Part shown: piece after piece, positions 37,534-40,180 of the stretch
Position numbering within the stretch: position 1 is the stretch's first letter
How the letters are laid out: each line of letters opens with the position of its first letter
DNA from: Alphaproteobacteria bacterium
GTDB taxonomy: Bacteria > Pseudomonadota > Alphaproteobacteria > UBA7879
Assembly (NCBI GenBank): GCA_965178295.1
Contig: CBCXTT010000003.1
Coordinates: forward strand, 88,114-152,113
Direction: 5' to 3'
DNA: 64,000 bases
Notes under the pieces: generated by a model
What the model was told of the DNA's origin: nothing
Databases searched by the model: none
What the model saw: only the letters and a program-made list of their open reading frames with translations
Made by a program: the position numbers and the translations under genes

Positions 37534-40180
37534 ATGAAAAATTGTTTTTTAGTTTTTTTCTTTTCTTTTGTTGCACTATCCGATTTAAGTGTGTTGGCAA
37601 CGCGGGTGCATGATAAATCGCCGGCCGAAGTTTCAACGATGCCGTTGAAGAGATTTGTCTGGGATTCTCAAGAGGTTAATGATGGCATTGAAGCATTTAC
37701 TGGTCACAAAAACGCCGTGCCTTTGTGGCACTTGTCTGCTTTGGGACCGTATGATGATAATCCGATTTCTAATTTTTACCGCTCACCTGATGGTGTGGCG
37801 CCTATGGGGACACGTCATGAGTTTGGTCGTGGCGTTGTTTACGTGCATACCTACAATCCAGACGGTCTTGGGAGCAATTTGTATCGCACAATTCCAAGGA
37901 TACCGTCCGATATAATAAAGGTGTCACGCAATGGTGCAGCTGTTCAAACAGGGTTGATGGTATCTGGTCTCGGGAAGGCGTTTGTGCCTCTACTGCCGGA
38001 CTCTGTACAAGCTTATCTTGAGCATGGAATACATAAAGATTTGCCTGTGGAAATCAGTATTTCATCCCAAGATATACCGTGGACAAAAAAAGCGCTTGCT
38101 GACAACCTTGTATTGCGCCCACAATATGCTGTTCTTCCTAATGAACCTTATTCAGAAGCAGGGTATAAAAAGAAAGTGTTTGATACAGAGACCGCGATTT
38201 ATTCGCCCGATAATACGCTTTCTTTAAAAGCGAAGGGTAAGGATGGCGCCATCACTAAGGGCGCAGGACATGAGATGTTAGCTGGGTACTCGGCGCATAT
38301 AAGTGGAGCAAATCCACTTGTCGTTTTATCTCCTAACCAACCAGGTCTTCTAGGCCTGACGCACAACGGAACAGCGTTTTGGTCGACATTTGTTATCCTC
38401 GATAAGAGGACGAAAGCACCACAAAAAATTTATGTGAATGCCAGCCTGATGCTCAGCGATCATCAAGCGATGCTGTTTAGCGATATTCTTAGCAGGGCGC
38501 ACACACTGAGGGAGGTGCTTGTGGCCATGAAAGATACGGCAGAGTTTGGCGGGGGTGCTAGCTTAGACGTGATGCAAGGTCTTTTTGAGCGCGGACATGT
38601 GTATGGAATGAACTGGGGTGACCCTGCAGTTGTGACAGCGGCGCTAGATGCCAAAGTGTCAACAGAACATGCTAAGGCACATGCTAGTGGTGGGAAGCCG
38701 AAAGAGCATGCAAAAAAAACCTGACGAAACAAAGTCTAAAGCTGCAACATCGAAATCTGTCGATCCTTCCCCGGCACATGCTAGTGGTGGGAAGCCGAAA
38801 GAGCATGCAAAAAAACCTGACGAAACAAAGTCTAAAGCTGCAACATCGAAATCTGTCGATCCTTCCCCGGCACATGCTAGTGGTGGGAAGCCGAAAGAGC
38901 ATGCAAAAAAACCTGACGAAACAAAGTCTAAAGCTGCAACATCGAAATCTGTCGATCCTTCCCCGGCACATGCTAGTGGTGGGAAGCCGAAAGAGCATGC
39001 AAAAAAACCTGACGAAACAAAGTCTAAAGCTGCAACATCGAAATCTGTCGATCCTTCCCCGGCACATGCTAGTGGTGGGAAGCCGAAAGAGCATGCAAAA
39101 AAACCTGACGAAACAAAGTCTAAAGCTGCAACATCGAAATCTGTCGATCCTTCCCCGGCACATGCTAGTGGTGGGAAGCCGAAAGAGCATGCAAAAAAAC
39201 CTGACGAAACAAAGTCTAAAGCTGCAACATCGAAATCTGTCGATCCTTCCCCGGCACATGCTAGTGGTGGGAAGCCGAAAGAGCATGCAAAAAAACCTGA
39301 CGAAACAAAGTCTAAAGCTGCAACATCGAAATCTGTCGATCCTTCCCCGGCACATGCTAGTGGTGGGAAGCCGAAAGAGCATGCAAAAAAACCTGACGAA
39401 ACAAAGTCTAAAGCTGCAACATCGAAATCTGTCGATCCTTCCCCGGCACATGCTAGTGGTGGGAAGCCGAAAGAGCATGCAAAAAAACCTGACGAAACAA
39501 AGTCTAAAGCTGCAACATCGAAATCTGTCGATCCTTCCCCGGCACATGCTAGTGGTGGGAAGCCGAAAGAGCATGCAAAAAAACCTGACGAAACAAAGTC
39601 TAAAGCTGCAACATCGAAATCTGTCGATCCTTCCCCGGCACATGCTAGTGGTGGGAAGCCGAAAGAGCATGCAAAAAAACCTGACGAAACAAAGTCTAAA
39701 GCTGCAACATCGAAATCTGTCGATCCTTCCCCGGCACATGCTAGTGGTGGGAAGCCGAAAGAGCATGCAAAAAAACCTGACGAAACAAAGTCTAAAGCTG
39801 CAACATCGAAATCTGTCGATCCTTCCCCGGCACATGCTAGTGGTGGGAAGCCGAAAGAGCATGCAAAAAAACCTGACGAAACAAAGTCTAAAGCCAAGAC
39901 GCACCCAGTTCAAATTAATACAGAAAAAGCTATAGGGCTGCCATATGAGGTGATGGAAGCAGCAATGCATTGGGCAAAAACACACGACACAGAACACACA
40001 AAGGCTGCAGTTGCATTTTTAGCAAGACTGAAAGCACTGTACGATGGCGCTGCAAATGGAAGTTTGGGAAAAGATGAGAGAATTAGGCAGTCTAATGCAT
40101 TGAAAGCCGAATACAGGGAAGGGGAGTTGAAGGCGCAGTTTACCGCCTGGAATAGTAAGAGAAAATATCATAAGCCATAG
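37534..40180 (+). CDS. Large secreted tandem-repeat protein (~880 aa if read through) interrupted by a +1 frameshift. The first repeat copy carries A8 at 38712-38719 and every later copy carries A7. As annotated it reads as ORF 37534..38724, then continues in another frame to 40180.
   Basis: Signal peptide MKNCFLVFFFSFVALSDLSVLA; unique 390-aa N-terminal domain; 12.7 identical 32-aa repeats PDETKSKAATSKSVDPSPAHASGGKPKEHAKK; unique 95-aa C-terminus. Deleting one A restores a single ORF. Confidence 0.6.
38676..39895. repeat. 96-bp tandem repeat array, ~12.7 apparently identical copies. There are no stop codons in at least 4 of the 6 frames.
   Basis: The 96-nt period was measured between successive …cacatgctagtgg… occurrences. 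Long open frames on both strands are artefacts of this array. Confidence 0.9.

Follow-up and report, generated by a model that had tools for sequence, protein, structure and literature searches.

Introduction

Gene X, the subject of this article, encodes a putatively exported protein and lies in a stretch of 64,000 nucleotides (the window) from an alphaproteobacterium of the GTDB lineage UBA7879 (assembly GCA_965178295.1, contig CBCXTT010000003.1, positions 88,114 to 152,113 of the forward strand). It contains a tandem repeat array and a reading-frame break at a poly-A run, and the closest described systems are those in which one or the other of these features occurs. In the simple sequence repeat (SSR) contingency genes of Campylobacter, Neisseria and Haemophilus the length of an intragenic homopolymer, poly-G/C, sets the reading frame, and the cut-offs used by PhasomeIt for potentially phase-variable tracts are at least 10 bases for poly-A/T and at least 7 for poly-G/C (PMC6321876). 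The proteins TRP32, TRP47 and TRP120 of Ehrlichia and similar surface proteins with variable-number tandem repeats (VNTRs) are secreted proteins of intracellular alphaproteobacteria in which near-identical repeats lie in frame between unique N- and C-terminal regions (PMC8112483, PMC5895000). In tssM1 of Citrobacter rodentium a run of eleven A residues (A11) leads to 20-25% frameshifting (PMC4256274), and for transcriptional slippage in general the frequency climbs exponentially with run length, A/T runs are the main sites and single insertions dominate (PMC5574713).

The explanation favoured here, held tentatively as a whole and with a confidence somewhat short of even, is that gene X is one gene with a recent VNTR, interrupted by a real and unprogrammed slip of one nucleotide.

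Architecture of gene X and the reading-frame break

The first open reading frame of gene X (ORF1) encodes 396 amino acids (43 kDa) and terminates after ...EHAKKT at the TGA in 38722-38724, inside the first copy of the array. The homologous A-run has seven residues (A7) in all 12 later copies and eight (A8) in copy 1, where the extra A moves the frame into ACC TGA, a stop two codons further on. When one A is deleted in silico, gene X becomes a continuous ORF of 881 amino acids (93 kDa, pI 9.6) that ends at 40180 and has 486 residues 3' of the A-run. The outline of this had been read correctly by an original prediction made from the letters of the DNA, with the end of ORF1 in repeat 1, the position of the A8 and the single protein of about 881 residues obtained by removing one A. 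The parts of the gene and its putative expression signals are the following:

37472..37499 (+), possible sigma-70-like promoter, TTGTTT and TAGAAT with a 16-nt spacer, proposed from reading the sequence and below the promoter-scan threshold
37524..37529 (+), Shine-Dalgarno sequence GAGGTG, 4 nt 5' of the ATG at 37534
37534..37602 (+), signal-peptide-like N-terminus, MKNCFLVFFFSFVALSDLSVLA followed by TR, proposed from hydropathy and the alignment with the ortholog P0002
37534..38724 (+), ORF1, made up of the export signal, the whole of the orphan N-domain, 15 residues from the start of repeat 1, a Thr and the TGA
37603..38675 (+), orphan N-domain, about 358 amino acids, predicted mixed alpha/beta, pI 6.7
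38676..39894 (+), tandem array of 12.7 copies of 96 bp with the 32-residue unit AHASGGKPKEHAKKPDETKSKAATSKSVDPSP, from Tandem Repeats Finder and unit comparison
38712..38719 (+), A8 run of copy 1, read from the sequence
38720..40180 (+), continuation frame of 486 codons and a stop, with the remaining repeats and the C-terminal domain
39895..40180 (+), unique C-terminal segment, about 95 amino acids, basic (pI 9.6), predicted all-helical

The weak promoter-like pair is located in the 130-bp divergent spacer between tlc, a gene for an ATP/ADP translocase, and gene X. In the sequence as given the continuation frame is out of reach from the ORF1 start, and the NCBI record for gene X consists only of a 396-residue protein (P0001) identical to ORF1; in the protein collections searched, the downstream frame is not on record as a protein from any ATG start. 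The charges and the hydrophobic core of the N-terminus are arranged as in a Sec signal, an arrangement that the ortholog shares; a conserved motif, HDK[SA]PAEVS, begins directly after the hydrophobic core. The original prediction had placed a unique domain of 390 residues behind the signal peptide; the signal-peptide-like N-terminus and the unique domain both stand, the domain with about 360 residues.

A single ancestral gene

The downstream frame (38720..40180) looks coding-like, as judged by its 95-codon open extension into unique sequence and by codon usage. Relative to the repeat unit, ORF1 runs through copy 1 (AHASGGKPKEHAKK) in the frame that the long downstream ORF has in copies 2-13. 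Codon log-odds were calculated per codon after training on the Pfam-confirmed genes of the window. Within the array the PDETKSK frame reaches +0.30 and the two others -0.05 and -0.94, and in the unique C-terminal end it reaches +0.27, with -0.56 and -0.73 for the others; the corresponding values are +0.24 for the N-domain and +0.20 for the training genes. The PDETKSK frame stays open for 95 codons into the unique sequence, with a shuffle P of about 0.0015. As four of the six frames of the 96-bp unit are free of stops, openness across the array itself is no proof of coding. The original prediction had argued from the reading frames that the copies are identical, which they are; the open frames that it invoked are not evidence of coding.

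A second line of evidence comes from an ortholog. When 1.84 billion cluster representatives were searched exhaustively with phmmer, only two proteins were returned, P0001 (ORF1 itself, on a contig of 306,391 bp) and P0002, the latter of 492 amino acids (E = 3e-47, 36% identity over residues 10-380). P0002 is encoded at 3794..5272 of a 6.4-kb Logan contig (SRR29340332_77716, here L081), and the order glnA-like (-), tlc (-), X (+), tdk (+) is common to this contig and the window. The two nearest anchors of this synteny in the window are:

35925..37403 (-), TLC ATP/ADP translocase gene (tlc), divergent from gene X; Pfam PF03219, E = 1.7e-158; 86% identical to the L081 ortholog
40445..41056 (+), thymidine kinase gene (tdk), downstream synteny anchor; Pfam PF00265; 83% identical to the L081 ortholog

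The glnA-like product is 75% identical between the two contigs and the X N-domain only 35%. With the neighbours at 75-86%, P0002 is the ortholog of gene X by position, and the gene diverges at several times the rate of those around it. It is a single uninterrupted ORF with a hydrophobic N-terminus, HDK[SA]PAEVS, the N-domain and a tail of 115-140 residues that is rich in Lys, Ala, Glu and Arg (pI 10.4, net charge +18; the window tail has pI 9.6). Tandem repeats were not found in the P0002 tail, and the C-terminal tails of the two genes did not align when compared alone, so that the tail sequences are not demonstrably homologous. Since both tails are basic and joined to the same N-domain, the combination of an export signal, an N-domain and a basic tail in one ORF is the ancestral architecture.

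Frame continuity, codon usage and the syntenic single-ORF ortholog together make it highly probable that there was one ancestral gene, with a recent VNTR, and not two genes; the view that the two ORFs are one gene split by an additional A, already taken in the original prediction, is thereby strengthened. The repeats and the unique end show no decay, and the break is young or reversible. This lack of decay also bears on the idea of an old fixed pseudogene, or of two independent genes, in which the N-domain ORF would be functional and the repeats and what follows would be relics or a separately initiated gene. The restriction of the protein record to the 396-residue ORF fits this idea, and several ORF-free stretches of 1-1.75 kb in the window suggest ongoing gene decay. 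Against it stand, besides the undecayed downstream frame, the union of N-domain and basic tail in one ORF of P0002 and the properties of the internal starts. An internal restart at Met 38648, allowed for in the original prediction, was rejected together with the ATGs at 38669, 38681 and 38708: no usable Shine-Dalgarno sequence precedes them, the product would lack an export signal and no such form is on record. A fixed old pseudogene is effectively excluded, and the two variants taken together are extremely unlikely.

The family was not extended by any further search. A profile search and a metagenome peptide-pattern scan returned no additional members, an exact 24-mer scan of metagenomes gave no match to gene X, and tblastn found no relative of it in plasmids or in 80 tlc loci of other genomes. 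Paralogs were not found within the window, and protein, contig and metagenome collections yielded no other example of the locus from this organism. By these comparisons gene X appears to be lineage-restricted and to belong to a newly recognised orphan family of two members.

The repeat array

Tandem Repeats Finder called the array with a period of 96 and 12.7 copies at 38676..39894. Eleven full units, which start at 96-nt steps from 38773 to 39733, do not differ at any position; copy 1 is the unit with one A more, and the final partial copy (66 nt) matches the unit without difference. The 36-mer located 5' of the A-run occurs 13 times with no mismatches, where no occurrence is expected by chance. 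The unit comparison thus agrees with the 12.7 identical repeats, and the A7 of the later copies, reported in the original prediction. Its description of the repeats as Lys/Pro/Ser-rich is corrected to Lys/Ala/Ser/Pro-rich for the 32-residue unit (net charge +3, pI 9.6).

Because the copies are identical, the array is very young or continuously homogenised, in line with the very recent expansion or concerted evolution proposed earlier, and the comparison with P0002 presents it, present in one genome only, as a novelty of the lineage of the window. Each repeat holds GCA-AAA-AAA-CCT (Ala-Lys-Lys-Pro), which makes up the A7 run.

The A-run and possible programmed frame changes

The run is an ordinary one. 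AAA accounts for 67% of Lys codons, and Lys-Lys is spelled AAAAAA in 44 of 75 cases; given this preference, GCA-AAA-AAA-CCT is the default spelling of Ala-Lys-Lys-Pro. Runs of at least seven A/T or at least six G/C occur 40 times, nine of them as 8-mers, inside Pfam-confirmed intact genes of the window, and its essential genes often contain runs of the same length or longer, which are stable there. P0002 itself contains an in-frame A8 (L081 3902-3909) and an in-frame A7 (L081 5091-5097), and A7/A8 runs are thus tolerated in the gene X family without interruption. The slippage-prone A7 that the original prediction saw in every copy is present in 12 of them, with A8 in copy 1.

These data weigh on the headline of that prediction, a phase-variable contingency locus. 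At such a locus the A-runs would slip often and in both directions between a full-length and an N-domain-only protein, and the number of runs and of repeat copies would add variants. The layout is suited to switching, since the +1 state leads to an immediate stop and a -1 reversion restores the 881 residues, and 13 runs enlarge the total target. Gene X is, moreover, probably exported, lineage-specific and faster-evolving than its neighbours, as is often the case for phase-variable genes, and its break is young or reversible, with no decay downstream. A7 and A8 are, however, shorter than the hypermutable poly-A/T tracts of at least 10 (PMC6321876). The run is explained by default codon usage, comparable ones are found in 40 places in housekeeping genes, and the ortholog is intact, without repeats and with an A8 of its own in frame. 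Tract-length polymorphism is not documented, and the databases searched hold no other sequence of the locus; the window encodes intact UvrD, UvrC and RuvABC, with no sign of generally degraded DNA repair. Dedicated phase variation at gene X is therefore not supported by the tract, and a true contingency locus is considered unlikely.

A more elaborate scheme of the same kind is a multi-site switch in an intracellular symbiont, by which the tail would change stepwise in length and in sequence, beyond a simple ON/OFF. Each of the 13 repeats presents an A7 followed by an out-of-frame TGA, so that a +1 slip in copy k would truncate the tail after k repeats; a -1 slip would enter another frame that is free of stops as far as 39935 (NLTKQSLKLQHRN...), changes in copy number would add variation, and the sequence at hand would represent k=0. 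This scheme is quite improbable.

Long poly-G/C runs are also found in ORF-free spacers of the window: G12 at 47265-47276 and C7 at 47418-47424, in the spacer 47080-48064 that separates a divergent aminotransferase gene from SCO1, and G8 at 54590-54597, in the spacer 53996-55004. By the usual cut-off these are better candidates for slippage-based phase variation, of the transcriptional type, than A7/A8.

The stop directly 3' of the poly-A run gives gene X a layout like that of tssM1 and raises the question of recoding. In this case the A8 would be real, and some full-length protein would be made by transcriptional slippage or by +1 tRNA-Lys slippage on A-AAA-AAA-A before ACC-UGA, yielding two products in a set ratio, as in the Citrobacter gene. 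The run has only 8 A, rescue needs the deletion of one A or the insertion of two while transcription errors at A/T runs are mostly single insertions (PMC5574713), and the arrangement is not conserved in P0002. With A8 and a requirement for -1 or +2, any rescue by slippage should be minor, and recoding is very unlikely to account for the locus.

Assembly accuracy at homopolymers

The unprogrammed slip favoured here presupposes that the extra A is present in the DNA itself and not just in the consensus, as it probably is. The alternative is a sequencing or assembly artefact: copy 1 would have A7, the 881-residue protein would be intact and ordinary, and the additional A would be a homopolymer error of the consensus. 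This is a serious contender that falls short of being probable. By a subjective split, a real mutation is given somewhat better than even chances and a consensus error a substantial minority share.

The accuracy of the assembly was addressed by a slip scan, in which a change of +/-1 was simulated at every run of at least 5 bases, on both strands and in both directions. It produced 15 possible ORF merges, 3 of which are at the A8 run of gene X; each of the remaining ones that could be judged by Pfam consists of two neighbouring genes, separate and complete. The scan thus revealed no further gene that is truly split, and none of the 40 comparable runs in Pfam-confirmed genes is miscalled. Pervasive homopolymer error was rejected on these grounds, and the per-run error rate of the assembly is low, roughly 2% or less. 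The assembly also resolves single-base differences within repeats: in a second array of the window, with 108-bp units, copies 1 and 3 differ from the rest by one C-to-A at unit position 47, and the retention of this single-nucleotide polymorphism in two copies only means that internal copies were individually resolved. All 13 A-runs of the gene X array have the same local sequence around them, so a systematic context error would affect all of them, and copy 1 is the one best anchored by unique flank.

Several points weigh against the favoured explanation. Homopolymer length is the typical residual error of long reads, a single-base difference being the commonest form, and long reads are implied here by the resolution of a perfect 1.2-kb array in a 306-kb contig. 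Thirteen identical runs multiply the chance of one error, which at 1% per run amounts to about 12% for the array. There is one consensus sequence only, in which a consensus or polishing error is possible at the boundary between unique and repeated sequence. The downstream part looks fully functional, since its repeats are perfect, its codon usage is that of coding sequence and its unique end is open, and the ortholog is intact. As to the unprogrammed nature of the slip, reversible switching at the run may occur. Export and the function of the tail, finally, are proposed from sequence features.

Predicted function and origin of the present state

Domain and structure searches gave no assignment for either unique part of gene X. 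The N-domain had no match in Pfam, NCBIfam or PHROG and only a chance-level one (E = 0.019) in a profile search of PDB. Structure prediction on the unique domains had been suggested with the original prediction, and it did not help to classify them: the AlphaFold2 (AF2) model of the N-domain, from a two-sequence alignment, had a predicted local distance difference test score (pLDDT) of 37.5 and was unusable, and a single-sequence AF2 model of the C-terminal segment (pLDDT 73) showed five helices for which the best Foldseek hit in PDB had E = 1.5. The C-terminal segment had no match by phmmer in the PDB sequences, nor among 5.8 billion proteins, itself included.

The probable destination of the protein is the envelope or a place outside it. 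Its tail is basic and hydrophilic, with a grand average of hydropathy (GRAVY) of -1.5; it is likely disordered and could act as a spacer or bind anionic partners, for example nucleic acids, polymers of the envelope or the membranes of a host. Fast divergence, restriction to two genomes and recent repeat expansion fit a host-interaction protein and do not prove one.

The favoured explanation can be put as a sequence of events. Gene X would be the gene of one Sec-type exported protein in a narrow lineage of intracellular, tlc-carrying alphaproteobacteria, its product consisting of an export signal, a globular N-domain of about 360 residues and a strongly basic, hydrophilic tail. Very recently a 96-bp piece of the tail would have been amplified by replication slippage or unequal recombination to 12.7 in-frame copies, followed by the helical end of about 95 residues. 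Strand slippage would then have added one A in copy 1, so that translation ends two codons on and the predicted product is a 43-kDa protein with the N-domain only, instead of the full-length 93-kDa one. A very young, unprogrammed slip in the sequenced culture would mean that a fast-evolving host-interaction gene has been truncated or is starting to be lost.

Genomic context

The tlc gene is a marker of an intracellular lifestyle, and the window is ordinary chromosome. In one-genome-per-species collections the closest tlc genes are alphaproteobacterial, of Holosporales type, or chlamydial, with 38-55% identity. Full-length Pfam matches were obtained for about 43 further genes of the window, among them RuvABC, UvrC, UvrD, the S16/RimM/TrmD/L19 operon, MetRS, SRP54 and ccm genes.

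A short glutamine-synthetase-like gene of 353 codons, the glnA-like gene above, is tightly linked to tlc in both genomes (window 34861..37403, minus strand; L081 1131..3690, minus strand), and this pair is conserved while the flanking genes for exported proteins differ or diverge fast. One of the latter, located 3.3 kb upstream of gene X at 32932..34272 (+), is a second exported orphan ORF, lipoprotein-like (MLIKNRIIVCILSLMCAC...) and 446 residues long; it bears the 108-bp (36-residue) tandem repeat, in 7.3 copies at 33244..34032, and its local GC content is about 55% against 43% for the window. It has no Pfam or NCBIfam match, and the gene is absent at the corresponding position of L081.

Further downstream lies a pair resembling a two-partner secretion system. 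The product of 48832..50493 (+) is an outer-membrane transporter of ShlB/FhaC type (POTRA_2 and ShlB domains), and that of 50525..53995 (+), of 1156 amino acids and with no significant Pfam match, is presumably its secreted partner. With this pair (48832..53995) and the repeat protein at 32932..34272, the genome carries several exported orphans like gene X. An orphan ORF of 479 residues at 9754..11193 (+) has as its sole Pfam match a sub-threshold ZapB-like coiled coil (E = 4.9e-05 and 24 bits, where the cut-off is 31.5).

Stretches without an ORF of at least 100 amino acids on either strand, 1-1.75 kb long, are found at 16604-18355, 47080-48064, 53996-55004 and 61293-62245, and none has an Rfam or tRNA match. 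They are unusually long for bacterial spacers and may be decayed genes in a reducing genome.

Significance and comparison with known systems

Should the extra A be genuine, gene X yields no more than the N-domain of its lineage-specific exported protein in the culture that was sequenced, and the truncation would show a plausible host-interaction factor in the course of being lost or varied. The public annotation ends with the 396-residue protein and almost certainly misses part of the gene. For strain typing, the array may be used as a VNTR marker. A caution also follows for similar cases: a difference between A7 and A8 in an AT-leaning genome is not by itself evidence of phase variation.

Gene X resembles its ortholog P0002 in locus, hydrophobic N-terminus, homologous N-domain and strongly basic hydrophilic tail, all of which are encoded in one ORF, in the window only after the removal of one A. 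P0002 differs in having neither repeats nor a frameshift and in its Ala/Lys/Glu/Arg-rich, probably helical tail, compared with the Lys/Pro/Ser-rich one of gene X; the C-terminal ends of the two are not detectably similar.

With the SSR contingency genes (PMC6321876) gene X shares an in-frame homopolymer whose length sets the frame, A8 giving 396 residues and A7 giving 881, and an exported, fast-evolving product; the longest of the three frames (881 residues) would be the ON state. It differs in the tract, which is poly-A of 7-8, below the cut-off of at least 10, the same as the tracts of housekeeping genes and the outcome of default codon usage, and for which no length polymorphism is known.

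In tssM1 (PMC4256274), as in poly-A tracts of endosymbionts, a premature stop follows a poly-A run, the downstream frame is intact and two products are conceivable, as they are in gene X. The run of gene X is A8 and not A11 and so falls short of the long runs (at least 9-11) upstream of a stop that a single insertion rescues; it would need -1 or +2 and not the favoured +1 insertion (PMC5574713). The interruption is not conserved in relatives either, the only ortholog being uninterrupted.

The likeness to the Ehrlichia TRPs and similar VNTR surface proteins (PMC8112483, PMC5895000) extends to a secreted protein of an intracellular alphaproteobacterium, lineage-specific and with no Pfam domain, in which near-identical, hydrophilic and probably disordered in-frame repeats stand between unique N- and C-regions. 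Gene X has 12.7 identical in-frame repeats in a coding-like frame behind a signal-peptide-like N-terminus. It has no sequence similarity to these proteins: no homology to the TRP or Msp1a families appeared in Pfam or NCBIfam, nor any homolog besides P0002. The TRPs are, in addition, type-1 secreted by means of C-terminal signals, in contrast to the probable N-terminal Sec-type signal of gene X. Repeats of TRPs are acidic and Ser-rich, and those of gene X are basic. By analogy with these systems, gene X may be described as the gene of a VNTR-bearing secreted protein of an intracellular bacterium, combined with an interruption by a homopolymer slip.

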